The notes under the pieces: model-generated
What the model saw: only the letters and a program-made list of their open reading frames with translations
What the model was told of the DNA's origin: nothing
Database searches by the model: none
IMG/VR virus record: IMGVR_UViG_3300048904_000202
Location: 4,007 to 68,006 of that record
Source: a virus
Lineage: Duplodnaviria; Heunggongvirae; Uroviricota; Caudoviricetes
Strand: one strand, 5' to 3'
Length of the DNA stretch: 64,000 nucleotides
Made by a program: the position numbers and the translations under genes
Part shown: positions 42,903 to 58,558 of the stretch, piece by piece
How positions within the stretch are numbered: the first letter of the stretch is position 1
How the letters are laid out: the number at the start of each line of letters is the position of its first letter

Positions 42903-43520
42903 ATGGCGACAAAGCGCGCCAAGATTCTCGACGAGGGGCAGTTCAACAAGCTGCTCCTGTACATCGACCAGAACTCGAACATGCCAGAGCGTGATCGACT
43001 GATCGTCATGCTCTCCTTCAAGGCTGGTCTGCGCGTCGCGGAGATCGCGAAGATCGACTTCACCGCGATGACCGATCCGGAAGGCCGGATCGCCAAGACG
43101 ATCCATGTCTACTCGAACGTCGCGAAGAAGAATCGCGAGCGCGAGGTGCCCATGCACCCGATGGTGAAGAATGCCTTCGCCGCGTTCCGGAAGAAATATC
43201 CGGATGCGCCCTGCGTCGCCATCTCGTCGCAGCCTTTCCAGCACGGCCGCTCCATCTGGGACTCGCCGGCTCCGCTCATCCGCATGAGCGTCAACGCCCT
43301 CACACTATATTATCGCCGGCTGCTCATCGCGGCCGGGTTCGACGGCTGCTCGACGCACTCGGGCAGGCGGACGTTTGCGACTGACGTGTCCCGCATCCTG
43401 TCGCGGCACCACCAGTCGATCAAGGACCTCCAGAGACTGATGGGCCATGCCCGTCTGGACACAACGGAACGGTATCTGGAACCTTCCAATGACACATTCA
43501 ATCTCGTGGCCGCGATCTGA
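42903..43520 (+). CDS. Tyrosine recombinase (Xer/integrase family, catalytic domain only)
   Basis: AGLRVAEI (R), K, HSGRRTF (HxxR), LMGH, TTERY (Y); own TTGACT-N17-TACTTC promoter. Confidence 0.9.
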   Translation: MATKRAKILDEGQFNKLLLYIDQNSNMPERDRLIVMLSFKAGLRVAEIAKIDFTAMTDPEGRIAKTIHVYSNVAKKNREREVPMHPMVKNAFAAFRKKYPDAPCVAISSQPFQHGRSIWDSPAPLIRMSVNALTLYYRRLLIAAGFDGCSTHSGRRTFATDVSRILSRHHQSIKDLQRLMGHARLDTTERYLEPSNDTFNLVAAI

Positions 43521-43607
43521 TACGTGGACATGAACGTGAACTGAGACTTGACAGTGAAGCAAGACTCAAACTAGACGCAAATCATCAATAGGAAAAGGAG
43601 ACACAAT

Positions 43608-44240
43608 ATGGCTACCCCGACCACCAAAACTGCACCCAAAGCTACCACCAAGCGCGTTACCGGTAAAGCAGGCTCGACCGCGCCGAAGCGGGCGCCCAAG
43701 TCCGAGCAGCAGCAGGCCGGCGGCACGACCGCGCTGGAGAAGTCGCGCGCTCACATCACTGGGCAACCGGCGGCCGGGGGCAAGCCAGCCGGCGCAGCGC
43801 CGGAAGTAAAAGCTCCAGCGGATTCGCTGAATGCCGGTGGCGCCGCGATCGAGAACAAGGTGGCCGGCGAGGGCGCGATTGCGACCGACCAGATCATCAC
43901 CGAAGCCGATGGCACCATGCGCGGCGGCACCAAGCGGGTGAAGATCGAGGTGATGGAGGTCCTGTCGCGCGGTGGTCTCAACACGCGCCGCGAGGAGGAA
44001 TATCCCTTCACCGCTCTTCCGATGTCCGAAGTGATCGACGGTAAGCCCAAGGGTCCGTCGTTCTTCATTCCGAAGAGCGATGCTCCGGACCAGAAGGTCG
44101 CCACCGCCCGCAAGCGTTATCGCGGCAAGGACGTGCAGTTCGTGACGCGCAAGCACGAGGAAGTCGTCGAGGGCGAAGAGAAGAAGGGCAAGCAGCCCGG
44201 TCTCCGCGTCTGGAAGGTTCCGGGCGGCACTCTCCGATAA
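43608..44240 (+). CDS. Putative DNA-binding protein with Lys/Ala/Thr-rich N-terminal tail
   Basis: Basic low-complexity N-terminus; C-terminal YPF...SFF.P...A.KRY...F.TR...GLRVW pattern; AAGGAG RBS. Confidence 0.55.
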   Translation: MATPTTKTAPKATTKRVTGKAGSTAPKRAPKSEQQQAGGTTALEKSRAHITGQPAAGGKPAGAAPEVKAPADSLNAGGAAIENKVAGEGAIATDQIITEADGTMRGGTKRVKIEVMEVLSRGGLNTRREEEYPFTALPMSEVIDGKPKGPSFFIPKSDAPDQKVATARKRYRGKDVQFVTRKHEEVVEGEEKKGKQPGLRVWKVPGGTLR

Positions 44241-44261
44241 GCTTCCGGCTTCGGCTGGATC

Positions 44262-44297
44262 GGCCGTCGCCCGTTAGCGGGCGGCGGCCTTTTTATT
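44262..44297 (+). terminator. Rho-independent terminator
   Basis: GGCCGTCGCCCG-TTAG-CGGGCGGCGGCC then TTTTTATT. Confidence 0.8.
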
Positions 44298-44410
44298 GAA
44301 CTACTCCGGACGAACGGGGTTGACGGCGCAGCGAGAATAAGCCATCTCGCGGTAGAGAGTTGAGTCGGACTCACATTCTCGCTTGACTTGTCGAGTGAAA
44401 GTGTGCATAT

Positions 44411-44686
44411 GGCCACTCTCCCTGAACGGGGCCGCCGGTATATCCCCCAACAGCCGGCGGCCCTAAGGGATGCTCCATGGTTTACCGAGGGGCTGGATCA
44501 GCCCGCCAAACCTACCCGGACGCCGCCTAGCTTGGGCAGACGAAGGATAACATAGGCAGGTCCGGCAGTGATGAGAGTGAAAGCGGTCGTTCTTGATGGC
44601 CCTTCGTGAAGTGGGAGATAAGCGCCTCACGGATCGCTGGTCTTGATGGAGCGGAGTTAGTAACCCGCTGTCAGGGTAAGTGGTCC
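44411..44686 (+). ncRNA. Unidentified multi-stem structured RNA, about 275 nt
   Basis: Nested closing stems GGCCACT/AGTGGTC and CCCTGA/TCAGGG; several internal hairpins; no ORF in the track; TTGACT box at 44383. Confidence 0.5.
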
Positions 44687-44730
44687 AGTCTCGTGGTAAG
44701 CCGTGGACAAAATAATTTCACAAAGGGGGG

Positions 44731-44760
44731 TTGACTTTAGTCCATGAGTTGGACTATAAG
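44731..44760 (+). promoter_or_regulatory. Sigma70-type promoter of tRNA operon 1
   Basis: TTGACT-N18-TATAAG. Confidence 0.75.
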
Positions 44761-44810
44761 CTGCACTCCAACGCGGTTCGCCGCATTTGAAAGAGTTTCG
44801 AGTTCCAGTC

Positions 44811-44903
44811 ATGGCACGCAATATCAACAACCCAGCACCAATGATCGCCGCCGTCGCGGCGATTGTGGTTGTGCGTGTCGAAGACGGAGGAACGCAGGTC
44901 TAG
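44811..44903 (+). CDS. Leader peptide 1 (MARNINNPAPMIAAVAAIVVVRVEDGGTQV)
   Basis: 21 of the first 23 codons encode M/A/N/I/P/V, the amino acids of the downstream tRNAs; followed by a terminator. Confidence 0.75.
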   Translation: MARNINNPAPMIAAVAAIVVVRVEDGGTQV

Positions 44904-44936
44904 CCCGACCTACATTCCTGACACCACCGAATTTGA

Positions 44937-44974
44937 AGGGCCTCAGATCATCCGATCCGGGGCCTTTTTCTTTT
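44937..44974 (+). terminator. Attenuator terminator before tRNA operon 1
   Basis: Stem 44937-44949/44954-44966 plus TTTTTCTTTT, 11 nt upstream of the first tRNA. Confidence 0.8.
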
Positions 44975-44985
44975 CACGGTTTTGT

Positions 44986-45062
44986 CAGGGTGTGGCTCAG
45001 TCCGGTAGAGCGTGCCCCTCGGAAGGGTGAGGTCGCGGGTTCGAATCCCGCCGCCCTGACCA
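44986..45062 (+). tRNA. tRNA-Pro(CGG)
   Basis: Cloverleaf, anticodon CGG, encoded CCA. Confidence 0.9.
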
Positions 45063-45152
45063 AACCGTGATCCACTGAGGTGGTTCGCAAGATTTGAAGT
45101 TGACCGACTGGTCGCTTCCGACTAGCAGCACCGCCTCACTCGATGTGGTTGG

Positions 45153-45229
45153 CGGGAAGTGGCGCAGTCTGGTAGCGCACCGGTCTCGGGGTCCGGGGGT
45201 CGCAGGTTCGAATCCTGTCTTCCCGACCA
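45153..45229 (+). tRNA. tRNA-Pro (anticodon read as CGG; U-U mismatch in stem)
   Basis: Pro-type body, loop CTCGGGG, encoded CCA. Confidence 0.8.
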
Positions 45230-45232
45230 CAT

Positions 45233-45309
45233 TGCAGTGTAGCTCAGCCCGGTAGAGCGGCGGATTCATGCTCCGCGCAGCGTTGGTTCAAATCCAGCCA
45301 CTGCAACCA
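45233..45309 (+). tRNA. tRNA-Met(CAT) (Ile2 not excluded)
   Basis: Cloverleaf, anticodon CAT, encoded CCA. Confidence 0.8.
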
Positions 45310-45323
45310 GTTTCGTAGGTAAT

Positions 45324-45399
45324 GCGGGATTAGCTCAGGGGTAGAGCGTCGGTATGACATGCCGAGACAGCGGTGGTTCAAATCCATCATTCCGCACCA
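45324..45399 (+). tRNA. tRNA-Val(GAC)
   Basis: Cloverleaf, A73, encoded CCA. Confidence 0.9.
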
Positions 45400-45404
45400 C
45401 CTAC

Positions 45405-45480
45405 GCCTCGTTAGCTCAGGGGTAGAGCGTCGGTATCACACACCGAGCCAGCGGTGGTTCAAATCCATCACGAGGCACCA
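45405..45480 (+). tRNA. tRNA-Val(CAC)
   Basis: Cloverleaf, paralogous to Val(GAC), encoded CCA. Confidence 0.9.
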
Positions 45481-45829
45481 GATAGAGGCTGAAATGCCGA
45501 AACATCGGAATTAACCAGTCCGAGAAGGTTGCAGTTACGAAGAACATGCACCGGCAGGCAGGGTGGTCCCCTGACGATACCGGACTTGGTATGTAGGCTT
45601 CGTCAGCGAGCAGCGTCCGGTGCGAGAGCATCAGACCAGTGATGGTCAGGCGGCCGTGGGTCCGAGGCAGATACCCACCGAAATTTCCCGGTCCCAGCCG
45701 GCCGTCAGTCCCATGGGACGATCGCCACACAAAGGGAGGGTAAACGGTGTGACAGTACCGGCGGCGCGCAATCCCGCGATCAGCCGCTGCGGAAAGCACA
45801 CGGGCCGGAGACAAGACATACCGGGCTAC
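45481..45829 (+). ncRNA. Unidentified structured RNA, about 350 nt, inside tRNA operon 1
   Basis: Nested stems GCACCGG/CCGGTGC, CTGACGA/TCGTCAG, CGGCCG/CGGCCG, GTCCC/GGGAC, CACAC/GTGTG; no credible ORF. Confidence 0.5.
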
Positions 45830-45906
45830 GGGGATGTAGCTCAGTTGGGTAGAGCGCCTGCCTTGCAAGCAGGATGTCGCGAGTTCGAACCTCGCCTTCT
45901 CCACCA
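45830..45906 (+). tRNA. tRNA-Ala(TGC)
   Basis: G3:U70, anticodon TGC, encoded CCA. Confidence 0.95.
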
Positions 45907-45916
45907 GCCCGGTTGT

Positions 45917-45993
45917 TTGCCGTAGCCGAACAAGGTGGACGGGGCTGACTGTTAATCAGCTTATGGTAGGTTCGATGCCTACACGGCAAGCCA
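45917..45993 (+). tRNA. tRNA-Asn(GTT), atypical D arm
   Basis: GCTGA-CTGTTAA-TCAGC anticodon arm, G73, encoded CCA. Confidence 0.8.
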
Positions 45994-46008
45994 GTTTCAA
46001 AGACCCGT

Positions 46009-46086
46009 CCTCGGGTAGCTCAGTTGGTAGAGCGGTGGACCGATAATCCATGTCTTGCGGTGGTTCAAACCCACCCCTGAGGACCA
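46009..46086 (+). tRNA. tRNA-Ile(GAT)
   Basis: Cloverleaf, anticodon GAT, encoded CCA. Confidence 0.9.
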
Positions 46087-46223
46087 TCTATTACCGTCCG
46101 TTTATCTGTCCCGGTAGGGCGCGGAGATACGGCTTGGTGAAGATGTACCGTCTATAGGCTGCGGCTGCTTCGGCCCCGTCAGCTTGGCCGGTGCACTCTA
46201 AGCGCGGTAATCACCAGCCCCGG

Positions 46224-46254
46224 AGCCCGTCACCCTAGTGGTGGCGGGCTTTGT
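46224..46254 (+). terminator. Terminator of tRNA operon 1
   Basis: AGCCCGTCACC/GGTGGCGGGCT stem plus TTTG. Confidence 0.6.
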
Positions 46255-46359
46255 GATTCATGCTCAGCAACATTCCGACACATTTAAGCAAAGAATGACT
46301 TGACATATGCGAGTCTAGAGTTAGTGATACTCATCACCCATCCAAGGGAGATTCGCAAA

Positions 46360-46887
46360 ATGGTCAAGAAGGTTATTCTCGCTGCCACCGTGGCCGGCCT
46401 CGCGCTGACTGCTTCGGCCTGTAACCGGGCTCCCGCCTATGGTTACTACAACGACGGCTACTATGCCGGCGCAAACACGCAGGTCTGCACCGATCGCGCC
46501 GGCCGCCGCGTCCCCGATATCAACTGCCAGCAGGCCTATTACGGCGGCGGCTACAATCCCTACCTCTGGTATTATGTCGGCGGCGGTTACCCCGTTCCCT
46601 ATTACGGGACCGTGGTCCACGGCGGTACTTGGTCGCGTCCGTCGAACTTCCGCAGTTATGTCCGCGCACCGGCTCAAGCCAACGTGACCCGCTCGGTCGC
46701 CGTTTCGCGCGGCGGCCTCGGCTCGACCAGCCGCAGCTTCGCGCAGACCTATTCATCGCCGTCGCGCTCGTATTCGTCGAGCAGCTATTCGTCGCCGTCC
46801 CGATCCTACTCGTCGAGCAGCTATAGCTCGTCGCGTTCGTCGTTCAGCGGGGGCGGGCGCTCGTTCGGCGGGAGCGTCAGTTCGTGA
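46360..46887 (+). CDS. YgiB/DUF1190-like lipoprotein
   Basis: Lipobox TASAC, C.D..G.RV.D..C, Tyr/Gly-rich middle, SRGG.G, Ser-rich tail; adjacent to a Gsp-like ligase. Confidence 0.7.
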   Translation: MVKKVILAATVAGLALTASACNRAPAYGYYNDGYYAGANTQVCTDRAGRRVPDINCQQAYYGGGYNPYLWYYVGGGYPVPYYGTVVHGGTWSRPSNFRSYVRAPAQANVTRSVAVSRGGLGSTSRSFAQTYSSPSRSYSSSSYSSPSRSYSSSSYSSSRSSFSGGGRSFGGSVSS

Positions 46888-48035
46888 AGCGCATCCAGAC
46901 CACCCCGCGTACTGACTGGCAGGCCCGTATTCGTGATGCGGGGATGGTCTGGGCAGGCGCTGACACCGGCGGCTGGAATGAGTCCGCCTATTACTCCTTC
47001 ACCAATGAGGACATCGAGCGGATCGGCGAAGCCACCGCCGACCTCTATCGGCTGTTCATCCATTGCGGCGACGCAATGCTGGACTACCGCGACTTCTACT
47101 GGCTGCGTCAGATGGGGATGCCCGAGTGGCTGTTCCCCTATCTCAAGGCGGCGTGGGACGCGGAACCACCGGCTCTCAATTTCGGTCGCTTCGATCTCGG
47201 GTTCGACGGTCGCAATGACCCGAAGCTGTTCGAGTTCAACTGCGACACGCCCGGCAGCCTGATCGAGGCATCGTTGGCGCAAGCGATCTGGCGCGAGGAC
47301 CTGTTCCCGCGCGGTGACCAGTTCAACGGTATCAACCGGGCGCTCGTGTCGCGCTGGGCCGACCTTCGCACCTCGTTCTACGGTCGCACCTTCCACATGA
47401 CGCACGTCTTCGACGAGGACGGCGAGGACACAGCCATCACCAACTATCTGGCCGAGACCGCTCGCATGGCTGGTCTCGATCCCATGATGGTGGTGATCGA
47501 CGACATCGGTCAGGACGAGGAAGGTCGCTTCGTTGACGCCGACGACATCCTCATGGACGTGGTGTACAAGCACTACCCGTGGGAGTGGATCGTCCGTGAA
47601 GAATACGGCCGCGCCATCGTCGAGCAGTCCTCGGACCCGATGCTATGGATCGAGCCGATCTGGAAGATGCTCTGGTCGAACAAGGGAATCCTCGTCGTCG
47701 CCAAGGCGCTGGAGCCCGAGAACCCTTACCTGCTTAACGCCAGCTTCGGGGATACCGGCGCGAAGGACTTCGTGAAGAAGCCCATCTTCTCGCGACGTGG
47801 TGAGAACATCGAGATCGTAGATCAGCGCCAGACCAGCGCGCGGTCCACCGGCGGCTACGGTGCCGAGGGCTTCGTCTATCAGGAGAAGTTCGATCTCCCC
47901 GAGATGGCTCCCGGCATCTTCCCGGTGATCGACTCGTGGATCGTCGGCGGCGTCGCAGTCGGCATGGGTGTCCGCGAAGGCGGCCTCATCACAGACAGTT
48001 CGGCGGCTTTCGTCCCTCACATTATCGAGGGGTGA
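46884..48035 (+). CDS. Glutathionylspermidine synthase family ATP-grasp ligase (YgiC-like)
   Basis: W.ESAYY, GRFDLG.DG...KLFEFNCDTP, YPWEW, IEP.WK...SNKG, KKPIFSR.GENI. Confidence 0.9.
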   Translation: MKRIQTTPRTDWQARIRDAGMVWAGADTGGWNESAYYSFTNEDIERIGEATADLYRLFIHCGDAMLDYRDFYWLRQMGMPEWLFPYLKAAWDAEPPALNFGRFDLGFDGRNDPKLFEFNCDTPGSLIEASLAQAIWREDLFPRGDQFNGINRALVSRWADLRTSFYGRTFHMTHVFDEDGEDTAITNYLAETARMAGLDPMMVVIDDIGQDEEGRFVDADDILMDVVYKHYPWEWIVREEYGRAIVEQSSDPMLWIEPIWKMLWSNKGILVVAKALEPENPYLLNASFGDTGAKDFVKKPIFSRRGENIEIVDQRQTSARSTGGYGAEGFVYQEKFDLPEMAPGIFPVIDSWIVGGVAVGMGVREGGLITDSSAAFVPHIIEG

Positions 48036-48036
48036 G

Positions 48037-48318
48037 ATGAGCTACGACGGCAGTGTGAAGTGGCAGCATGTCGAGGCTGCTCTGGCCCGTGATGGCTTCG
48101 CGCTGACGTTCGCCTGCACCTACGGCGAGTCTCTCCCCGCCGACCTTGAGTACACCGGCCGGGAAACCGGCTGGGAACTTCGCCGGAAGCTGAAATCCTA
48201 CTGTGCCTCACATGGGATCACCAACTTCCAGATCATTCGCAACACGAGCTACCACCGCGATCTGCACGGCAACGCCGTCTACGAGTTGTGGACTCGCCCT
48301 AACCAGATTGAGGGCTGA
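48037..48318 (+). CDS. Hypothetical protein
   Basis: Co-oriented. Confidence 0.55.
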   Translation: MSYDGSVKWQHVEAALARDGFALTFACTYGESLPADLEYTGRETGWELRRKLKSYCASHGITNFQIIRNTSYHRDLHGNAVYELWTRPNQIEG

Positions 48319-48319
48319 C

Positions 48320-48541
48320 ATGGACGCGACACAATTCTGCTACTGGCTACAGGGCCTTTTCGAACTCGGCGAGCCGACGACGCTCGACGAAGTTCAGGTC
48401 GATCTCATCAAGCGACATCTCGCGATGGCTTTCGAGCATGACATCGACCGTCGCCCGCCAGTCGAAGAGCAGAAGGTCCTCAACAACATCCATGCTGGAA
48501 CAACGCCCGCGTTTCAGCGGCCAAAAGGGATGAGGTGCTGA
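48320..48541 (+). CDS. Conserved phage hypothetical protein
   Basis: QFCYWLQG.FEL...IK.HL...F pattern. Confidence 0.65.
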   Translation: MDATQFCYWLQGLFELGEPTTLDEVQVDLIKRHLAMAFEHDIDRRPPVEEQKVLNNIHAGTTPAFQRPKGMRC

Positions 48542-48542
48542 C

Positions 48543-48773
48543 ATGGATACCGATCCCGCCACAATCGCGTCGAAGCTCAACCGTGGACAGAAGTCCACCA
48601 TCCGCTGCCTCGACGATACCCCGTCCGTTCTCGGCTGCGCCGAACCAACGGCTTTACGGCTTTCGCGCGCCACAACTCGCCGGCCGGCGCTGACCTATTA
48701 CACGCAAGGCGCTTCGTGGAAGATGTTCGCCCTCACGCCGATCGGACTCGAAGTTCAGGAGCATTGTTCGTGA
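48543..48773 (+). CDS. Hypothetical protein
   Basis: Co-oriented. Confidence 0.5.
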   Translation: MDTDPATIASKLNRGQKSTIRCLDDTPSVLGCAEPTALRLSRATTRRPALTYYTQGASWKMFALTPIGLEVQEHCS

Positions 48774-49294
48774 CCAGTCCCGCCATGCACTACGCCATCA
48801 CGGCCCACGCCATCACGGCCCACGCCATCACGGCCCACGCCGGCCAAACCTATGGCGACAATGCGGTTCCCTACACGGAACATCTCTTCGCGGTCCGACA
48901 GGTGCTGCGGGACTTCGGGTATTTCGGCGACTATGAAGATGCCGGCGTCCTCCATGACGTGATCGAGGACACCGCCGAGAGCCGCCGCACCGTGGCCGTC
49001 AAGTTCGGAGATCGGGTCGCCACCATGGCGTGGGTCTGCACCGGCGTTGGCCCGAACCGCGTCGTTCGCAACTGGTCCATCTACGCCAAGATGAGCATGT
49101 TTCCCGAGGCCGCGCCGGTGAAGGTCGCCGATCGGATCGCGAATGTCGAGCAGGCCACACCCGGATCGAAACACGCCAAGATGTATCTCGCCGAAGCGGG
49201 TGAGTTCCACGAACACGTCGCGCGGCTCGTGCCTCCACTGATGCAGGCCCGTCTCCTGCGGGCCTACGACGCCGCAGCACAGGTGCCGGCATGA
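48770..49294 (+). CDS. HD-domain (p)ppGpp hydrolase-like protein (SpoT-HD/Mesh1 type)
   Basis: AH.GQ.Y....PY..HL..V, AGVLHDVIEDT, VKVADRIAN. Confidence 0.8.
   Translation: MTSPAMHYAITAHAITAHAITAHAGQTYGDNAVPYTEHLFAVRQVLRDFGYFGDYEDAGVLHDVIEDTAESRRTVAVKFGDRVATMAWVCTGVGPNRVVRNWSIYAKMSMFPEAAPVKVADRIANVEQATPGSKHAKMYLAEAGEFHEHVARLVPPLMQARLLRAYDAAAQVPA
48792..48841 (+). repeat. 15-nt perfect tandem repeat x3.3 (AITAH)
   Basis: ACGCCATCACGGCCC x3 plus ACGCC. Confidence 0.95.
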
Positions 49295-49410
49295 CCCTCG
49301 GTGGCTTCCTCCTCATGCTGGTGATCGTGTTCGTCATCGTCCTGTTCGTCGCGATCGTATGCGGCGTGGACCTGTCGGACATCTTCTTCTTCCTGCCGGA
49401 CGGTAACTGA
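49291..49410 (+). CDS. Small membrane protein (not in ORF track)
   Basis: MTLGGFLLMLVIVFVIVLFVAIVCG...; coupled on both sides. Confidence 0.5.
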   Translation: MTLGGFLLMLVIVFVIVLFVAIVCGVDLSDIFFFLPDGN

Positions 49411-49610
49411 TGACCGCGCGCCAGTTCGTCTTCCTACTCCAGTGGGGTTGGTTGATGTTGCTCGCTGGTCTCTTCTCGCTTCTCTGCATGCCGATGTTCG
49501 CCATGCACGCGTGGATGGAGCGCAAGCCTCATCCGTGGCGCTGGGCGTGGGGTGTGGTGTCGAGCGGCGGCTTTCGGGATTTCGCGAAGGATTGGAGAAA
49601 GTACGGATGA
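49410..49610 (+). CDS. Small membrane protein
   Basis: TM helix; coupled. Confidence 0.5.
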   Translation: MTARQFVFLLQWGWLMLLAGLFSLLCMPMFAMHAWMERKPHPWRWAWGVVSSGGFRDFAKDWRKYG

Positions 49611-50119
49611 ACAAGCTCCAAGCCGCGACCGACACCGTCAAGGAACTGCTCTGCTGGTACGTCATCCTGCTGTTCGCAGCAGCCGGCGTCTACATGTTCG
49701 CGGAACACACATCACTCGACGACGCGCTCTATTGGGCAGCGACCACCGCGACCTCGACCGGGTATGGTGACCTGTCGCCGAAGACGATCGCCGGCCGGAT
49801 TGATGCCGTGCTGCTCATGCACATCTCGATCTTCGTCATCGCGCCCATGATGATCGTCCGCCTCATCGACAGGATGCGCGTCGATCCGAACGTCTTCACG
49901 GACGAGGAGCAGAAGGAGGTGCTGGAACACCTGCGAGCGATCCGGGACAAGGTCGGTGAGCCGGATTACGGCAAGTCGCCCCGTCTAGCTCAGACGCTCA
50001 GGCAGCTTCGCAACACCTATTACCACATGCTGCGAGCGCCTGATTTCTGCACGAAGGCTGCTGCGGCCTCCATCAAGATGGCGATCGACCAGCTTGAGAA
50101 AGTGGCGAAGGAACAGTGA
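49607..50119 (+). CDS. Two-TM potassium channel (KcsA-like pore)
   Basis: TM1-pore helix (DALYWAATT)-TSTGYGDLSP filter-TM2. Confidence 0.85.
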   Translation: MNKLQAATDTVKELLCWYVILLFAAAGVYMFAEHTSLDDALYWAATTATSTGYGDLSPKTIAGRIDAVLLMHISIFVIAPMMIVRLIDRMRVDPNVFTDEEQKEVLEHLRAIRDKVGEPDYGKSPRLAQTLRQLRNTYYHMLRAPDFCTKAAAASIKMAIDQLEKVAKEQ

Positions 50120-50283
50120 TGGACGACATCGACGTGGATCAGTTCGTGGCCGAAGAGATCGAGAGCCTCCGCCGCTTCGCTGCGATGTGGAAATCCGAAT
50201 CGGCGAACGACCCGGAAATCTGGCCGGCGAACATGCGGCGCGGCGAATGGGATGAGCAGTTCCGCTCGTACGAGGGCGCGTGA
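50119..50283 (+). CDS. Hypothetical protein (not in ORF track)
   Basis: MDDIDVDQFVAEE...WDEQF; coupled. Confidence 0.5.
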   Translation: MDDIDVDQFVAEEIESLRRFAAMWKSESANDPEIWPANMRRGEWDEQFRSYEGA

Positions 50284-50591
50284 TGACGGACCCTATCGGC
50301 AACTGCGAATGCGGCGCACCGCTGGCTGAGACCGGTCCGCCGATCTGGGAAACCTACTGCACGGACGAGAAGTGCAAGGTCGCTTGGAACAAACTGGTCA
50401 AGGCTATCCGCGAGGCGCCGTTGCCGCCGCTTACCGGACGATATGCCGCCGAGATCAAGCAGATCGCTGCCGAGCTTCGCCATACCTACGACCATCTGGT
50501 GAATGGCACCACCAGTGATCCCGCCGAATTGGCGAGAGGCCTGCTCGGCCCACAGATCGTGCGGCTTGAGAAGCTGACAGGAGGGAAGTGA
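50280..50591 (+). CDS. Hypothetical protein
   Basis: Coupled; CECG...C....C. Confidence 0.5.
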   Translation: MMTDPIGNCECGAPLAETGPPIWETYCTDEKCKVAWNKLVKAIREAPLPPLTGRYAAEIKQIAAELRHTYDHLVNGTTSDPAELARGLLGPQIVRLEKLTGGK

Positions 50592-51223
50592 TGAAGAACA
50601 ACGTCTATTACGAAGCCGTCGCAGGTGAGGTTCTCGCCTTCTGCTTCGACTACCGCGAGCGCCTGATCGCAAAGCGCGACGTGTTTCAGGAGTACGCCAA
50701 GTCCAAGGGCGCGAAGGGCTGGGTTGGTTCATGGGGTGATTTCTTCGGCCTGCTCTATGAGCGCGATGCCGATCGCCCTAAAGGCCTTGTTGCCGCCAAG
50801 CGCAAGACCAACGACGGCTACACTGTCTGGCGTCCCCATGGGAAGTCGCCCGAGGGTAAGGAACTTCGCCGCGAGTTCGACGACCTTGGTCGAGAGCCAC
50901 GTGGTCACGAGTTCTGCAAGCGGTTCAACATCCCGGAGTCCTTGAGCTACCGGAAGTCCGAGGAGTGCTACGGCACCATGGCGCTCAACGCCATCTTCCC
51001 CGACTCGGCCTTCATCGGCTGGACCGGAGAAGGTGACGATCTTCGCTTCTGGGTCGTGCTACCGGACGTGGATGGTGCCATCGCCGACAAGACTGCCGAG
51101 GGTTACACCTGCGATCCTGCTTCGTGGACTCTGCCGGCCGGGCTAATTCTCTCCAGCCGAGCCCGCTACGATCTCGCCGTGGCGCAGGCCAAGGTGCGGG
51201 AAGAGGAGCTTGAGGCGGCGTGA
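50588..51223 (+). CDS. Hypothetical protein
   Basis: GGAGGG RBS; 211 aa. Confidence 0.65.
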   Translation: MMKNNVYYEAVAGEVLAFCFDYRERLIAKRDVFQEYAKSKGAKGWVGSWGDFFGLLYERDADRPKGLVAAKRKTNDGYTVWRPHGKSPEGKELRREFDDLGREPRGHEFCKRFNIPESLSYRKSEECYGTMALNAIFPDSAFIGWTGEGDDLRFWVVLPDVDGAIADKTAEGYTCDPASWTLPAGLILSSRARYDLAVAQAKVREEELEAA

Positions 51224-51438
51224 TCACCGACGATCAACTGGTGGCGCTGCTCATCGACGCCCACACCACCCGGCACGATCCCGAGTTCGGATCGAGCTAT
51301 CACCAGACCGACCGCTTCGATGTCGAGATCGAGAACGGGATCATCAAGGTCGGCACCGGCGGAGGTGACTTCTACGCGGTGACGCTCGATCTCGAACAGT
51401 TCCGTGCCGGCGTCGAAGCCCTGATCCGGAGCGATTGA
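51220..51438 (+). CDS. Hypothetical protein
   Basis: GTGA overlap. Confidence 0.5.
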   Translation: MITDDQLVALLIDAHTTRHDPEFGSSYHQTDRFDVEIENGIIKVGTGGGDFYAVTLDLEQFRAGVEALIRSD

Positions 51439-51632
51439 TGCTCACCTACCTAGACCGGGCTTTCTGCACCGCCAAGTGTCTCACCCTCGATTGTCCACGC
51501 AACGTGACGCCAGAGGTCGAAGCGGCTGCGGAGAAATGGTGGGGAGGCCCGGATTTCCCGATGAGGCTCATGCCGCTCAATGAGCAGTGTGATGGCTACC
51601 AGCCAGCGCCGGAGGGCATCTGCAATGCCTAA
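51435..51632 (+). CDS. Small Cys-rich protein
   Basis: D..FC....C....C.R pattern. Confidence 0.55.
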   Translation: MMLTYLDRAFCTAKCLTLDCPRNVTPEVEAAAEKWWGGPDFPMRLMPLNEQCDGYQPAPEGICNA

Positions 51633-51996
51633 GGCCGGACGATTGCAGTGCAAGGACATCCCGGATCAGCCGATCCTCCAGTTCCTACACGACCAGCCGG
51701 TAGTTGGCACCAGCGTCAGCAAGGACGGGTTACCGTTCAGGCGTTGGACCAACTGGTTCTGGGACCCGAAAGGATCATATGAGCCAAATCCTGAATACGA
51801 ATACTTGCCTGACAACTCCGTTGCTCGTGCAATGCCGGAAGGCGTCTGTGACAAGCTGCGGATCGCCAAGATGGCGATGATGATCCGGCGCGGCATTGTG
51901 GATGGATGTCCGTGCGGGTGCCGAGGCGACTTTGTGATCACCAAGAAGGGCGAGGACCTGCTTGCCAAAATGAAAGAGGCCGAATGCCAGACGTAA
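51625..51996 (+). CDS. Hypothetical protein
   Basis: QCKDIPD.PIL.FL...L..GC.CGCRGDF.IT.KG. Confidence 0.6.
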   Translation: MPKAGRLQCKDIPDQPILQFLHDQPVVGTSVSKDGLPFRRWTNWFWDPKGSYEPNPEYEYLPDNSVARAMPEGVCDKLRIAKMAMMIRRGIVDGCPCGCRGDFVITKKGEDLLAKMKEAECQT

Positions 51997-52520
51997 CGTT
52001 CACAGATGACGTGCAGGTGGTGGGCCTCCCGTTCAAACCCGGTGATTGGGCCGTCGATCCGTGCGGCGAACGTGTAGCGAAGGTCGTTCGCGTCTACCGG
52101 TGCGGCGAAGATGTGCTGCTCGATCTCTCGATCTACAGCCATAAGGGCGAACGCCTCGGCCGGACCTCTCCGGCGATGGGTGGTCCAACGAAGACCGAGC
52201 CCGCGTGTGATGCAAAGAATTGGGAGAGGATCGCCGAGCCTGACTTTCCGATCACCATAAAGTGGGTGCCCAGCAGCGACGGTAAGGTGTCGGCGCGATA
52301 TTGGGCAGGGGATCGTCTGCCGCCAGCCAACTACGTCCCTCGGCCGAAGAAACCGAAGGCGAAGCCGGCGACGCGTCGCTCCGATTTCCCAGCGACGCTG
52401 GACAAGGAAGAGTACCAGCATCTGGTGGAGCTTTTCGCCGGTGCCAACGATCCGATCGCCATCTCGATCGTGACCAAGGCGCAGGGGATGCTCGACTGGT
52501 ACACGAAGATCGGACTCTAG
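51984..52520 (+). CDS. Hypothetical protein
   Basis: Co-oriented; GAGG RBS. Confidence 0.55.
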   Translation: MPDVTFTDDVQVVGLPFKPGDWAVDPCGERVAKVVRVYRCGEDVLLDLSIYSHKGERLGRTSPAMGGPTKTEPACDAKNWERIAEPDFPITIKWVPSSDGKVSARYWAGDRLPPANYVPRPKKPKAKPATRRSDFPATLDKEEYQHLVELFAGANDPIAISIVTKAQGMLDWYTKIGL

Positions 52521-52557
52521 CCAGACAAACTTTTTTCGTCCTTATGTCGATTTTGGG

Positions 52558-52586
52558 TTGACCTAGACCATCCGCCTGTGTATAAG
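52558..52586 (+). promoter_or_regulatory. Sigma70-type promoter of tRNA operon 2
   Basis: TTGACC-N17-TATAAG. Confidence 0.8.
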
Positions 52587-52633
52587 CCCACCTCTCGACG
52601 CACTTCCGCGTCAACAGGATTATTGAGACCACC

Positions 52634-52690
52634 ATGTTCTTCGGGACCAAACGAGATCGCCGAGAAGGCGAACGAGGTTTTAGCCTCTAA
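52634..52690 (+). CDS. Leader peptide 2 (MFFGTKRDRREGERGFSL)
   Basis: 14 of 18 residues are F/G/K/R/D/E, the amino acids of the downstream tRNAs. Confidence 0.75.
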   Translation: MFFGTKRDRREGERGFSL

Positions 52691-52726
52691 CCCGGTGGTG
52701 TGTCCTGCTGCCGGTGTCGTTTTGAC

Positions 52727-52803
52727 GGATCGGTAGCTCAATAGCGTAGAGCGGTGGGTTCTTACCCCGCAGGTTGTGGGTTCGACCCCCACCCGATCCT
52801 CCA
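52727..52803 (+). tRNA. tRNA-Lys(CTT)
   Basis: Cloverleaf, encoded CCA. Confidence 0.9.
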
Positions 52804-52825
52804 AAACGACATCGGTAAAATTGAC

Positions 52826-52854
52826 ACCCCATCGGCGACCCCGGTGGGGTTTTT
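52826..52854 (+). terminator. Attenuator terminator after the first tRNA of operon 2
   Basis: ACCCCATCGG/CCGGTGGGGT stem plus T-run. Confidence 0.7.
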
Positions 52855-52876
52855 CGCGTCCGCATTCTCGGCTCAT

Positions 52877-52951
52877 GGATCGGTAACTCAATGGGCAGAG
52901 TGGCGGACTTTTAATCCGAGGGTGTGGGTTCGAGGCCCACCCGATCTACCA
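52877..52951 (+). tRNA. tRNA-Lys(TTT)
   Basis: Cloverleaf, encoded CCA. Confidence 0.9.
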
Positions 52952-52967
52952 AATTTCACGGGCCTGA

Positions 52968-53040
52968 GCGGTTGTAGTCTCAGCGGTAGAGCGTCGGCTT
53001 GCCAAGTCGAAGGTCGCGGGTTCGATCCCCGCCTGCCGCT
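52968..53040 (+). tRNA. tRNA-Gly(GCC), CCA not encoded
   Basis: Anticodon GCC, U73. Confidence 0.85.
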
Positions 53041-53156
53041 CAAGCCCGTGATCACAAGTTTCCAGCGGGGTCCGCGCCAGTCCAAGACCTTCATGGGAAA
53101 GCCGATCGACCATAGGACCAGCGCAGTTGGTCGATCGTGAAATGAGATGTGTTGAT

Positions 53157-53231
53157 GCGGCCGTAGCCAAGCGGTCAAGGCAGGAGGCTTCCACCCTCCC
53201 AGCGCGGGTTCGATCCCCGCCGGCCGCTCCA
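53157..53231 (+). tRNA. tRNA-Gly(TCC)
   Basis: Cloverleaf, U73, encoded CCA. Confidence 0.9.
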
Positions 53232-53242
53232 TCACCTCTCAC

Positions 53243-53317
53243 GGACACGTAGCTCAGTGGTAGAGTCTCGCACTGTCGATGCGAGTGTCGCGGGTTCGAT
53301 CCCCGTCGTGTCCGCCA
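53243..53317 (+). tRNA. tRNA-Asp(GTC)
   Basis: Cloverleaf, G73, encoded CCA. Confidence 0.9.
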
Positions 53318-53323
53318 CTTCAC

Positions 53324-53399
53324 GGCCCGTTCGTCTAGCTGGACAGGACGACCGCCTCTCACGCGGTAAGCAGGGGTTCGATCCCCCTACGGGCTACCA
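53324..53399 (+). tRNA. tRNA-Glu(CTC)
   Basis: Cloverleaf, encoded CCA. Confidence 0.9.
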
Positions 53400-53420
53400 G
53401 TACCCACATGCTTTCAGCAT

Positions 53421-53494
53421 GGCCCCATAGACTAAGGGTAGGTCGCCAGTTTTTCACGCTGGAAGTCGGAGTTCAATTCTCCGTGGGGCTACCA
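53421..53494 (+). tRNA. tRNA-Glu(TTC)
   Basis: Cloverleaf, encoded CCA. Confidence 0.9.
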
Positions 53495-53536
53495 ATTTGA
53501 CGGACACCGCGCTGGTCGCGATCCGTCCACGAGTAC

Positions 53537-53612
53537 GCCGCTATAGCTCAACAGGATAGAGCGCGGGATTACGAATCCCAAGGTCGAGGTTCGAGTCCTC
53601 GTAGCGGCTCCA
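53537..53612 (+). tRNA. tRNA-Arg(ACG)
   Basis: Cloverleaf, encoded CCA. Confidence 0.9.
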
Positions 53613-53620
53613 GCCTCTTC

Positions 53621-53695
53621 GCCGAGGTAGCTCAGTGGTAGAGCGCCGGCTTGAAATCCCGGAAGTCGCAGGTTCAACTCCTGCTCTCGGCACCA
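53621..53695 (+). tRNA. tRNA-Phe(GAA)
   Basis: Cloverleaf, encoded CCA. Confidence 0.9.
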
Positions 53696-53735
53696 TCTCC
53701 AAATAGGGAAAATAACACTGCGTCAAAAATAGTTG

Positions 53736-53764
53736 TTGACACTACCACTCGACCTGTGTATAAG
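53736..53764 (+). promoter_or_regulatory. Sigma70-type promoter of tRNA operon 3
   Basis: TTGACA-N17-TATAAG. Confidence 0.8.
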
Positions 53765-53771
53765 CCGCTCC

Positions 53772-53852
53772 ATGTTCACACAGACCCTCTTGAGCCTAAC
53801 CGGCACGACGCTTTGGCATTATTGCCAACAGCATCTGAGTTCATCCCTCTAA
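53772..53852 (+). CDS. Leader peptide 3 (MFTQTLLSLTGTTLWHYCQQHLSSSL), probably leaderless mRNA
   Basis: 23 of 26 residues are S/Y/L/T/H/Q/C/W, the amino acids of the downstream tRNAs; ATG lies 7 nt after the -10 box. Confidence 0.78.
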   Translation: MFTQTLLSLTGTTLWHYCQQHLSSSL

Positions 53853-53887
53853 GGGGAGTGGTCTGACGCCCGCTCCCCTCTCCATAC

Positions 53888-53975
53888 GGAGGGTTGGCAG
53901 AGTGGGTTATTGCGGCGGTCTCGAAAACCGCTGAACCGAAAGGTTCCGTGGGTTCAAATCCCACACCCTCCTCCA
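53888..53975 (+). tRNA. tRNA-Ser(CGA)
   Basis: Long variable arm, encoded CCA. Confidence 0.9.
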
Positions 53976-53984
53976 GATTTTCAG

Positions 53985-54024
53985 AGCGTCAGCAGCCTAC
54001 GGGCCGCTGGCGCTTTTTCGTTTT
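53985..54024 (+). terminator. Attenuator terminator after the first tRNA of operon 3
   Basis: AGCGTCAGC/GCTGGCGCT stem plus TTTTTCGTTTT. Confidence 0.75.
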
Positions 54025-54114
54025 GGGTCGTCTTCCCCTCGCCGGACTGTAACCCCGGTGCCATCGAACCGAGGGGCTGTGTGGCGGGAGGTTCGAGTCC
54101 TCGACGACCCACCA
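54025..54114 (+). tRNA. Non-canonical tRNA-Tyr(GTA) lacking a D arm
   Basis: Perfect 7-bp acceptor, A73, CCA, T arm and GTA anticodon arm; only 10 nt where the D arm should be. Confidence 0.7.
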
Positions 54115-54157
54115 TTCTATTCCAGCAGGAGTACGATCAAGAGTTCACGAGTTGCAC

Positions 54158-54245
54158 GCACTGGTGGCGGAACTGGATATACGCAGCAAGCTCAGACCTT
54201 GCCGCCCTTTGAGGATTGTGGGTTCGAGTCCCACCCGGTGTACCA
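54158..54245 (+). tRNA. tRNA-Leu(CAG)
   Basis: Long V arm, A73, encoded CCA. Confidence 0.9.
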
Positions 54246-54256
54246 GCAACTCGAAC

Positions 54257-54341
54257 GCGGATGTGGTGAAATAGGTAAACGCAGCGGGTCGAGAGCCCGC
54301 CGGCTTCGGCCTTGTGGGTTCAAGTCCCACCTTCCGCACCA
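54257..54341 (+). tRNA. tRNA-Leu(GAG)
   Basis: Long V arm, A73, encoded CCA. Confidence 0.9.
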
Positions 54342-54355
54342 GTTACCTCGTGATT

Positions 54356-54429
54356 GCCGGCGTAGCTCAATGGTAGAGCTACGGCGTCGTAACCCGTAGA
54401 CCTGAGTTCGATTCTCAGCGCCGGCTCCA
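54356..54429 (+). tRNA. tRNA-Thr(CGT)
   Basis: Cloverleaf, encoded CCA. Confidence 0.85.
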
Positions 54430-54457
54430 CGAGTTGATCAGTGTCCATGGGCGTGGT

Positions 54458-54533
54458 GTGGCCTAACGCAATACAGTGCGCGGCCGGATTGTGACTCCGG
54501 TGCTAGAGGGTGCAGGTCCCTCAGGTCACCCCA
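54458..54533 (+). tRNA. tRNA-His(GTG), divergent D/T loops, C73
   Basis: GTGGCCT/AGGTCAC acceptor, CCGGA-TTGTGAC-TCCGG arm, encoded CCA. Confidence 0.75.
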
Positions 54534-54547
54534 CGCCCATGGATAGT

Positions 54548-54621
54548 TGCCCCTTCGGCTAATGGTAAGCCTTCTGACTCTGAATCAGACAATCGAGGTT
54601 CGATTCCTCGCGGGGCATCCA
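54548..54621 (+). tRNA. tRNA-Gln(CTG)
   Basis: Cloverleaf, U1-A72, encoded CCA. Confidence 0.9.
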
Positions 54622-54676
54622 GATTAGGGAGACGACGATATGGACGATACTCTCGATCGACAACCGAACGGCTTAA

Positions 54677-54750
54677 TGCCCGTTCGGCTAATGGTAAGTC
54701 GCTGCACTTTGAATGCGGAGACCTTGGTTCGATCCCAAGACGGGCATCCA
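54677..54750 (+). tRNA. tRNA-Gln(TTG)
   Basis: Cloverleaf, encoded CCA. Confidence 0.9.
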
Positions 54751-54752
54751 GA

Positions 54753-55079
54753 TCAGAGCGTCGTGTATCCGTTATCGATGCACATGCTCATGATGCCGTA
54801 ACGCAGTGTGGTGTTGTCCGCCGGGCTGGTGACATAGGCCTGATCGGCCCGAACGATGTGGCCAGCGGCGTTGCGGTAAATCGCTACCTTGAAGGTGCGG
54901 CCGTTCGCCCGTCCGCACACGACAACGGCGTCGGACTTGACCGGATCGGTTGCGATCTGCGGACGGTTGGGCAGGAAGCTGGCGATGGCGTTAGAGATCA
55001 CAACCTTCTCGGTAGGCAGCAAGGGGCGCGCCTCGGCCGAGGGTGTAGCGACAAGAGCCGCGATGAGGATTAAGGACAT
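54753..55079 (-). CDS. Secreted hypothetical protein, antisense within tRNA operon 3
   Basis: Signal peptide MSLILIAALVATPSAEA; VVCG..NG and terminal C; AGGAGAA RBS. Confidence 0.6.
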   Translation of the reverse strand: MSLILIAALVATPSAEARPLLPTEKVVISNAIASFLPNRPQIATDPVKSDAVVVCGRANGRTFKVAIYRNAAGHIVRADQAYVTSPADNTTLRYGIMSMCIDNGYTTL

Positions 55080-55158
55080 GGGGGTTCTCCTATCTGGTGG
55101 AATTTCTGCCGGACCATAGGATGGACCGATAAAGGAGACAACAAGATTCAGGGTTAAC

Positions 55159-55245
55159 GGAAGGTTGGCCGAGCGGTAAGGCACCCGCTTGCTAGGCGGG
55201 CGAGACCTCAGGGTTGCGTGGGTTCGATCCCCACACCTTCCTCCA
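55159..55245 (+). tRNA. tRNA-Ser(GCT)
   Basis: Long V arm, encoded CCA. Confidence 0.9.
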
Positions 55246-55252
55246 CCCTGTT

Positions 55253-55301
55253 TGCGTCATATATGGCGCACTAACCGGCTTTATGCGTCATATATGGCGC
55301 A
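55253..55301. repeat. Duplicated 18-bp quasi-palindrome TGCGTCATATATGGCGCA
   Basis: Exact copies at 55253-55270 and 55284-55301. Confidence 0.85.
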
Positions 55302-55304
55302 AAC

Positions 55305-55378
55305 GGCGCGATGGCCGAGTGGTAAGGCTCCGGATTGCAACCCCGGCATCGCCGGTTCAATTCCGGCTCGCGTCTCCA
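55305..55378 (+). tRNA. tRNA-Cys(GCA)
   Basis: U73, encoded CCA. Confidence 0.9.
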
Positions 55379-55385
55379 GTTTCAT

Positions 55386-55460
55386 ATCGGTGTAGCTCAG
55401 TGGTAGAGCGGCGGCTTCCAATCCCGCGCGTCCGAGGTTCGATTCCTTGCACCGGTGCCA
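55386..55460 (+). tRNA. tRNA-Trp(CCA)
   Basis: G73, encoded CCA. Confidence 0.9.
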
Positions 55461-55967
55461 TTACGCTCCCAGCGGCTTGCGGAGGATGCCCCATTGGGAA
55501 ATCCCCGCCTTGCGCAGCAGGGAGACGGGCTCGAAAGCAGTGATGCTGTTGAAATACACGAGATGGTCATGGGGACTGGTTCGACGCTGATTTAGTCCGA
55601 GCGTTTCCAGTATCCGCATCACCCAATCCATATGAGGAACCGGCGAGGTCAGTAGCAACACGCCGCCGGGTTTTAGCAGGGCCTTCGCCTCCTCCGTGAA
55701 ATCAACATGCTCGATCACCTCGAAGGCCACGATCGCGTCAAACGACGCAGGCTCCAAACCGAGCTTTCGCCAATCGCGGATATCTCCGACGACATCGGCT
55801 GGCTCGACGATGTCATTCCCCACATAGTTGATCCATCCGTGGCTGCGAAGATACTCACCCACCCACCGCGACCCACACCCGATCTCTAGGATGCGGGCGT
55901 CTTTTGGCAGCGGGTTCAAAAAATACTCGATCTTCTTGCGCTGTGCATATTCACTCAGGGCCGGCAT
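55461..55967 (-). CDS. Class I SAM-dependent methyltransferase
   Basis: ILEIGCGS, SFDAIVAFEVIEH, LLKPGG.L.L.SP. Confidence 0.85.
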   Translation of the reverse strand: MPALSEYAQRKKIEYFLNPLPKDARILEIGCGSRWVGEYLRSHGWINYVGNDIVEPADVVGDIRDWRKLGLEPASFDAIVAFEVIEHVDFTEEAKALLKPGGVLLLTSPVPHMDWVMRILETLGLNQRRTSPHDHLVYFNSITAFEPVSLLRKAGISQWGILRKPLGA

Positions 55968-56216
55968 GACACCCCTCCTCGTCGCTCTAGATCGACCCTA
56001 AAGGCCTGATGGTTAACACTTTCCTACCGGAAAGAAACCAACTTATCAAACCACTTAAAGAGCGAAACGATCAGTCGGGGTCCGTACGGTCCACGATGCG
56101 AAAAAAGATGGGCCACGTATGGTCCATCTTTATGCACGCTTCATGTTGATTTGGTATCCTCTTGGGTCCGCGTCCCTCTCTGGATGCGTCATCCCCATCA
56201 TCCACGAGGAAGTACC

Positions 56217-56645
56217 ATGTCGAAGAGCAATACCTTCGAGAACGATCTGCTCAAGCTCATTTTTCAGGGGATCGCCATTCCGGGCATCGCTGACAACACT
56301 GCGACAGCGCCGTTGGGCAATCTGTACGTCGCGCTCCACACTGCCGATCCGGGCGAGGGTGGTGACCAGACCACCAACGAAGTGAACTACACCGGTTATG
56401 CCCGTGTCGCTGTCACCCGTTCGGGCGCTGGCTGGACCGTTGCTGGCTCAGTCGTGAGCCCGACGATTAATATCGACTTCCCCACAGGCACCGGAGGCGC
56501 CTCTACCGCAGCTTTCTTCTCGGTTGGTACCGCGCTGAACGGCGCCGGCAAGATTCTGTACTCGGGCACGATCACTCCGAGCATCGCCTGCGGCAACGGC
56601 GTCACCCCGCGTATCTCGACCGCCTCCACCATCACCGAGGATTAA
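56217..56645 (+). CDS. Putative virion structural (fibre/appendage) protein
   Basis: EN.LL...LYVALHTADPGE.G....E..Y.GYARVAV pattern of phage fibre-associated proteins. Confidence 0.65.
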   Translation: MSKSNTFENDLLKLIFQGIAIPGIADNTATAPLGNLYVALHTADPGEGGDQTTNEVNYTGYARVAVTRSGAGWTVAGSVVSPTINIDFPTGTGGASTAAFFSVGTALNGAGKILYSGTITPSIACGNGVTPRISTASTITED

Positions 56646-56666
56646 TCCTCGGCCCGAGGGGGCTTC

Positions 56667-58277: not shown

Positions 58278-58558
58278 GCTTCCCCAAGTTCCCGCATCCA
58301 AAAGACCCCGACGACGTGGCGGACTATGCCATCGATTGGACAGCACGACTCGACGCCGGTGATTCCCTTGCGGACTCTCTCTTCGAGGTGGTGTCGGGTA
58401 CCATTTTGCTGGGCGCTCAATCGATCGACGGCAACAAGGCCACCGTCTGGGTCAACGGTGGCGAAGACGGTGAAACGGCCACCATCCTCAACCGCGTGAC
58501 GACCACCGGTGGGCGGCAATACGACCAGACGTTCGCGCTAAAAATTAAGACGCAGTGA
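58274..58558 (+). CDS. Fibre/tail adaptor-like protein
   Basis: KDPDD..DY.IDW..RL..GD.L...VW.NGG..G....I.NRVTT.GGR..DQT. Confidence 0.65.
   Translation: MSFPKFPHPKDPDDVADYAIDWTARLDAGDSLADSLFEVVSGTILLGAQSIDGNKATVWVNGGEDGETATILNRVTTTGGRQYDQTFALKIKTQ

Follow-up and report, generated by a model that had tools for sequence, protein, structure and literature searches.

The first tRNA operon of a large phage of sphingomonad-type bacteria is preceded by a real and conserved unit that is very probably a translation-sensing attenuator of that operon. We put at roughly 0.6 the probability that this unit (unit 1) is a ribosome-mediated, leader-peptide transcription attenuator gating tRNA operon 1. The window, i.e., the whole stretch of 64,000 nucleotides that was analyzed, comes from an IMG/VR virus record of 164 kb, is phage-like, has a G+C content of ~60%, and carries 26 tRNA genes (ARAGORN) and one tmRNA gene. 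From upstream to downstream, unit 1 consists of a promoter-like site, a small hairpin in the 5' untranslated region (5' UTR), a leader open reading frame (ORF), a hairpin at the stop codon, a 20-nt spacer, and a terminator, followed by tRNA-Pro (44986) (Table 1). An earlier note on this DNA had proposed a leader-peptide regulatory unit at this place, and the proposal holds: 11 diverged homologs have retained the ORF with its set-specific composition, along with the hairpin at the stop codon and the terminator. It is further borne out by two sister units, before operons 2 and 3, which follow the same logic and have clear antiterminators.

Table 1. Features of the three leader units and of tRNA operon 1 (window coordinates)
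Feature	Position	Strand	Basis or remark
Operon 1 promoter-like site, TTGACT-18 nt-TATAAG	44731-44760	+	regex match
Small 5'-UTR hairpin, CGCG-GUUC-GCCG type	44773-44784	+	folding, -6.1 kcal/mol
Leader ORF 1, 30 codons, MARNINNPAPMIAAVAAIVVVRVEDGGTQV	44811-44903	+	ATG 44811, TAG 44901-44903
ORF-internal hairpin A, core (Ile-Ala-Ala-Val-Ala-Ala-Ile codons)	44843-44864	+	folding
Hairpin B, stop codon TAG (44901-44903) in loop	44888-44919	+	folding
Candidate antiterminator strand (AGGUCUAGCCCG), complementary to terminator left arm	44896-44907	+	pairing energy
Intrinsic terminator 1, stem 44935-44949/44954-44968, U tract to ~44975	44935-44975	+	folding, covariation
tRNA operon 1: tRNA-Pro(CGG) x2, Met(CAT), Val(GAC), Val(CAC), Ala(TGC), Asn(GTT), Ile(GAT)	44986-46086	+	
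Sister unit 2 (promoter, leader, post-stop strand, tRNA-Lys, terminator)	52558-52857	+	
Leader ORF 2, MFFGTKRDRREGERGFSL	52634-52690	+	before Lys/Gly/Asp/Glu/Arg/Phe tRNA cluster
Unit 2 post-stop strand	52692-52704	+	pairs with left arm of unit 2 terminator
tRNA-Lys(CTT)	52727-52803	+	within flank helix
Unit 2 terminator	52823-52857	+	past first tRNA
Sister unit 3 (promoter, ORF, post-stop hairpin, tRNA-Ser(CGA), terminator)	53736-54025	+	
Leader ORF 3, MFTQTLLSLTGTTLWHYCQQHLSSSL	53772-53852	+	before Ser/Tyr/Leu/Thr/His/Gln/Cys/Trp tRNA cluster
Unit 3 terminator	53984-54025	+	past tRNA-Ser(CGA)

Transcription of operon 1 would start at ~44767. The promoters of the three units were recognized by regular-expression matching and conservation: a TTGACA-type -35 box with 17- to 18-nt spacing is present in all unit 1 homologs, and the same promoter type precedes leaders 2 (52558) and 3 (53736). 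None of the three was called by a consensus promoter scan, which missed the operon 1 site because its -10 box ends in G. Where the window has its small 5'-UTR hairpin, the relatives have a hairpin of another sequence. The ~440 nt upstream of the leader 1 promoter (44290 to 44730) hold no convincing ORF and have promoter-like sites of their own at 44311 and 44386. Part of this region is similar to positions 11100 to 11376 of Sphingobium phage Lacusarx, and its counterpart in the relatives is followed by an orphan tRNA-like gene called as Lys, Glu, or Arg; the region may be a conserved structured RNA.

Leader ORF 1 lies 50 nt from the -10 box and 82 nt from tRNA-Pro. Past the start Met, 21 of its 29 residues are Asn, Ile, Pro, Ala, Met, or Val, compared with a background of 0.32 in the phage's own proteins (P = 1.1e-5), and these are the amino acids of all eight operon 1 tRNAs. 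The match that the earlier note had seen between Val codons and encoded tRNAs applies to all six Val codons of the leader (GTC, GTG, GTT, GTG, GTC, and GTC), each readable by Val(GAC) or Val(CAC); the corresponding matches of ATC and ATT to Ile(GAT) and of AAT and AAC to Asn(GTT) were also confirmed. So was the caveat that it attached to Pro, as both Pro codons are CCA, which goes unread by the two phage tRNA-Pro species (both CGG). In sum, the tRNAs of the leader's own operon read 17 of the 29 codons and those of the other operons read 8, leaving 4 (CCA twice and GCC twice) for which the phage encodes no reader. The Shine-Dalgarno sequence is weak (GAG at -11 to -9, with AGGA 15 to 17 nt upstream). 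Among the homologs, the leader ATG is conserved, in-frame stops are absent, and insertions and deletions stay in frame; judged from such indirect features, leader ORF 1 may be translated.

Two structures lie at and beyond the leader stop. Pairing of AGGUC with GACCU across the stop codon, which had been spotted by eye, amounts to -12 to -13 kcal/mol, with a P value of 0.02 when the flanks are shuffled for comparison, and the stop codon is enclosed by a stem of differing sequence in all 11 homologs, with individual P values of 0.01 to 0.6. The terminator had been called strong, and it is: the stem from 44935 to 44968 has a folding energy of -19.3 kcal/mol, is followed by UUUUUCUUUU, and ends 17 nt before tRNA-Pro. 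Its U tract reads 5U-C-4U after a GC stem. An intrinsic terminator is found 25 to 32 nt past the leader 1 stop in 11 of 11 homologs, among which there are 10 distinct covarying stems with several pair types at every level.

We propose that polymerase would start at the 44731 to 44760 promoter and that a ribosome would translate the 30-codon leader behind it and so test the Asn, Ile, Pro, Ala, Met, and Val codons that correspond to the downstream tRNAs. With fast decoding, the ribosome would reach the UAG, melting the stop-codon hairpin and covering the stop-adjacent strand; the terminator at 44935 to 44975 would then form, and transcription would end before tRNA-Pro. With a charged cognate tRNA in short supply, decoding would be slow and the ribosome would lag, and the stop-adjacent strand could pair with the left arm of the terminator, giving read-through into the tRNA genes. 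The net effect would be negative feedback on tRNA supply, and with its two sister units the phage would cover 20 amino acids in three separately sensed blocks.

An antiterminator in unit 1 of this phage is plausible from modeled pairings and folds. The proposed pairing of AGGTCT or GCCC with the left-arm sequence GGGCCT can form, and the strand at 44896 to 44907 pairs with the left arm at -11.9 kcal/mol, the best of 29 windows; the energy is within the shuffle range, being no better than with shuffled left arms (fraction, 0.40) and giving a P value of 0.09 against the shuffled window, and the pairing is confined to narrow ribosome positions. The trpL and hisL controls likewise fail this simple duplex-versus-shuffle test. 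In the clade of the window, an AGGYC-type motif lies at most 6 nt from the stop in 5 of 5 homologs, and the stop-adjacent window ranks first of ~28 in 3 of the 5. The same stop-adjacent partner was seen in homologs L020, L021, L023, L013, and L014, and the combined P value over the homologs, which are not independent, is ~0.06.

Truncated transcripts were folded with the RNA cut before the right arm of the terminator and a ribosome placed along the leader. Nine left-arm bases paired with 44897 to 44906 only with the A site on Val23, Glu24, or Asp25, and this capture was absent from the window both without a ribosome and with the ribosome at the stop. For early stalls on Asn, Ile, Pro, or Ala codons, opening of the unit 1 terminator is not predicted and hairpin B remains intact. 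The thrL and trpL controls show the left arm captured only with the ribosome on the control codons, and unit 1 resembles them over a narrower range. At equilibrium, the unit 1 terminator kept P > 0.82 at every ribosome position, and the Escherichia coli thrL, ilvL, trpL, and hisL controls kept P values of at least 0.93; the equilibrium probability is therefore nondiagnostic, because genuine E. coli attenuators also keep the terminator. Another suggested helix, between the Val codon block (~44864 to 44879) and GACACCAC (44920 to 44927), does form (-11.3 kcal/mol), but it could not by itself prevent termination, because it involves no terminator bases. A pairing between the 5' UTR and the left arm that appeared in unconstrained truncated folds was neither significant nor conserved and was discarded. 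Since the unit 1 antiterminator is weak and forms only with the ribosome on Val23 to Asp25, we infer the polarity and mechanism of this unit.

The sister units have stronger pairings. In units 2 and 3, the terminator lies ~130 nt past the leader stop, and a post-stop strand is complementary to its left arm with energies of -14 to -21 kcal/mol; the compensatory double changes seen in these units are A-U to G-C and C-G to U-A. The unit 2 pairing shows two such changes between lineages and is lost only with the ribosome at the last codons or the stop (6 of 6 homologs). The post-stop hairpin of unit 3 has no U tract, and its loop, CUGACGC (53863 to 53869), exactly complements the left arm of the terminator (GCGUCAG). 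The leader 3 ATG follows the -10 box by 7 to 9 nt in 9 of 9 homologs, which suggests that the unit 3 mRNA is leaderless. Given the antiterminators of units 2 and 3, the general attenuator reading is much stronger than it would be from unit 1 alone. Unit 1 of the L02 clade likewise has a clear candidate antiterminator, in the form of a left-arm complement within the ORF. The flanks of tRNA-Lys(CTT) (52709 to 52723 and 52803 to 52817) form a helix of 12 to 15 bp that is conserved in relatives and stacks on the unit 2 antiterminator; in the modeled fold, it looks like a site for a double-strand RNase.

The folds also bear on polarity. Ribosome passage might instead remodel the RNA toward read-through while stalling leads to termination, in which case the operon would be on only if the codons were translatable (a feed-forward licence). 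Such an arrangement finds some support in the L02 clade, where the Ile-Met-Val-Pro-Val codons of the ORF contain a left-arm complement of 12 to 13 nt (-17 to -19 kcal/mol) that pairs with the left arm by default, releasing it only with the ribosome on codons 13 to 23, although polarity in that clade would again be classical if a local 1:2-type hairpin were trapped kinetically, as in trp. An early-stalled ribosome in the window leaves hairpin B and the terminator intact, and the ~130-nt distance in units 2 and 3 means that a masking ribosome must persist at the stop for seconds, both of which fit a reversed polarity. However, positive feedback on shortage would not be homeostatic, as short supply would yield less tRNA, and the unit 2 folds switch cleanly in the classical sense, with the terminator forming when a ribosome occupies the stop. 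We therefore consider the reversed polarity unlikely and prefer attenuation with read-through on slow decoding.

The same structures could act after transcription, with leader translation controlling the processing or stability of the tRNA precursor (through access for RNase P, E, or III) or the loading of Rho and with the hairpin and U tract serving mainly as a processing or insulating element. Processing is universal for tRNA precursors, the first tRNA of unit 2 tips a 12- to 16-bp flank helix that is stacked on the long-range pairing and has the look of an RNase III-type substrate, and a post-stop hairpin without a U tract, as in unit 3, would suit this role. In contrast, the unit 1 terminator is a textbook intrinsic terminator that covaries in 11 homologs, and the complementarities target the left arms of the terminators specifically. 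Post-transcriptional control is thus quite improbable as the main function, and transcription attenuation remains our preferred reading.

Primase relatives of the phage include Erythrobacter phages XM05 and vB_EliS-L02, Sphingobium phage Lacusarx, and Citromicrobium phage RXM, and a recombinase profile search added a dozen IMG/VR contigs that share the tRNA order. The three leaders occur at matching positions in ~10 diverged relatives, including L02, XM05, and IMG/VR contigs. RXM has the same synteny and no tRNAs, and Lacusarx has leaders 2 and 3 and no leader 1, indicating that unit 1 is dispensable. Some relatives have a Val-rich leader, though ARAGORN finds no operon 1 tRNA-Val in them. Queries with the upstream 210-amino-acid protein and with the single recombinase sequence found no relatives, and relatives of the glutathionylspermidine synthase, considered as a source of homologous loci, proved not to be syntenic. 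A DNA pattern for the window-type leader matched only the L011 contig again, and blastn of the leader against phage records gave matches only to tRNA parts. The sequencing runs listed as containing the sequence were of the DNA type from root metagenomes, with no RNA run among them.

Across these phages, the match between leaders and operons is specific. All 20 amino acids are divided among the three units, every own-set amino acid is present in 28 of 28 leaders (~10 phages), and for the window's three leaders a 3-by-3 table of leaders by operon amino acids deviates strongly from independence (chi-square = 77.5, P = 6e-16). The own-set fraction is 0.74/0.80/0.88 in frame, compared with 0.15 to 0.42 in other frames. 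Scrambling of residue order between lineages has left the composition intact, as in the leader 1 examples MFNVIAMNNPAPAIMVPVAMAC.., MRNIPAINMIAAPANMVPAVIA.., and MFAAIVNIAIMPAVNPAAMA.., and leader replacements within a set outnumber those that cross sets by 307 to 163, compared with a random single-base expectation of 0.43:1. Scrambled order, kept composition, in-set replacements, and in-frame indels together indicate selection on the codons read rather than on the peptide sequence or the RNA alone.

This pattern also weighs on the idea that nothing is sensed, i.e., that the ORF is a conserved micropeptide or a by-product of RNA structure and the terminator a constitutive, leaky damper that keeps tRNA levels low. 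Being hydrophobic, peptide 1 could be a micropeptide that resides in the membrane, and much of ORF 1 doubles as a stable hairpin, as hairpin A extends to 44812 to 44881 with -32.5 kcal/mol. Similarly, two conserved hairpins overlap with the leader 2 core (KRDRREGERGF), and Lacusarx manages without leader 1. Against this idea stand three chemically different peptides, each matching its own operon set and complete in 28 of 28 cases, with composition kept under scrambled order and enrichment that is frame specific. Nor are the sets physicochemical classes, as Asn goes with hydrophobic residues, Phe and Gly with charged ones, and Leu with polar ones. We accordingly give little credence to a nonsensing role and retain the attenuator reading.

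The phage units have parallels among enterobacterial attenuators. As in ilvL (ilvXGMEDA), thrL, trpL, hisL, leuL, and pheL, a short ORF lies between promoter and genes, its codons report on aminoacyl-tRNAs, and an intrinsic terminator follows. The stop codon in or beside a hairpin loop recalls trpL, sensing of more than one amino acid recalls ilvL and thrL, and the switch pattern of unit 1 in truncated folds recalls thrL and trpL. The label "ilv-leader-like" given in the earlier note describes an analogy and not homology: the leader matches no Rfam leader family and reports six amino acids rather than Ile, Val, and Leu; a cmscan of 43500 to 60000 against Rfam at the gathering score returned tRNAs and the tmRNA only, with no leader family and no T-box. 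Unlike the enterobacterial attenuators, the phage units are phage encoded and would regulate tRNA genes rather than biosynthetic enzymes. Leader 1 reports six amino acids without long single-codon runs, the three units partition 20 amino acids, the unit 1 antiterminator is weak, and the terminators of units 2 and 3 lie past the first tRNA, which the antiterminator encloses.

Leader-peptide attenuation of a translation-apparatus gene that handles the sensed amino acid is known from the E. coli pheM leader of the pheST (phenylalanyl-tRNA synthetase) operon. In contrast to the phage units, pheM responds to one amino acid only and acts on a host operon for synthetase proteins. A leader ORF was also looked for at pheU and pheV, the tRNA-Phe genes of E. 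coli, and neither has one. T-boxes resemble the phage units in placing translation-supply genes under terminator/antiterminator control by the charging of a specific tRNA, but they bind uncharged tRNA directly with neither ribosome nor ORF, whereas the sensor in the phage would be a translated ORF. The same design is seen in Caulobacter phage CcrBL9, of an unrelated lineage, where gp149 (11768 to 11887; 39 amino acids, annotated as hypothetical) draws 33 of its 38 residues from P, T, K, L, H, A, S, and W. These are the amino acids of the 12 tRNAs behind gp149, and all eight are present. What gp149 shares with the window's leaders is that a short ORF is made up largely of the amino acids that the following tRNAs carry; its lineage, peptide sequence, and operon partition differ.

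The usual view of phage tRNA genes is that they are constitutive and help with codon usage or that they provide spares when host nucleases attack tRNAs. To our knowledge, ribosome-driven feedback on tRNA gene transcription is not known for cellular tRNA operons. The full-text literature that we searched yielded no description of leader-peptide control of tRNA genes, and neither leaders nor attenuation comes up in the papers on phages Lacusarx and L02. We regard as an evenly balanced proposition that the tRNA supply of large phages is governed by a circuit that senses demand, in which operons partition the 20 amino acids and each is gated by a leader peptide of its own set and transcribed only on slow decoding (for example, upon loss or cleavage of host tRNAs); such a circuit would be the first case of tRNA genes controlled by leader-peptide attenuation and would recur in unrelated phage lineages. 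If so, the phage would gauge decoding speed class by class and answer with the matching tRNAs, and the fixed order and partition of its tRNA arrays would be explained. Reporter fusions and cultured relatives would then give an experimental handle on when phage tRNAs are needed, and the leaders might serve as compact multi-amino-acid translation sensors.

Several further features of the tRNA arrays were observed. In operon 1, a 90-nt spacer (45063 to 45152) separates the two tRNA-Pro(CGG) genes, which adjoin in the relatives; it contains TTGACC-17-TAGCAG, which might act as a weak promoter inside the operon and allow the attenuator to be bypassed. A 349-nt insert (45481 to 45829) lies between tRNA-Val(CAC) and tRNA-Ala(TGC). 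In Lacusarx (11037 to 11460), no terminator precedes the first tRNA cluster; the putative structured RNA upstream adjoins tRNA-Pro directly, and an unannotated tRNA-Met(CAT) follows at ~11462 to 11540. Downstream of leader 3, two tRNA-like genes whose anticodon loops carry GTA (Tyr) and GTG (His) occupy 54028 to 54115 and 54445 to 54545 of the window, the positions of tRNA-Tyr and tRNA-His in the relatives. Neither was called by ARAGORN or Rfam, and in both the D-arm region seems to have been replaced by an extended helix or insertion. Inside tRNA operon 3, a gene on the opposite strand (54753 to 55082, minus) has a good ribosome site (AGGAGA) and a signal-peptide-like start (MSLILIAALVATPSAEA..).
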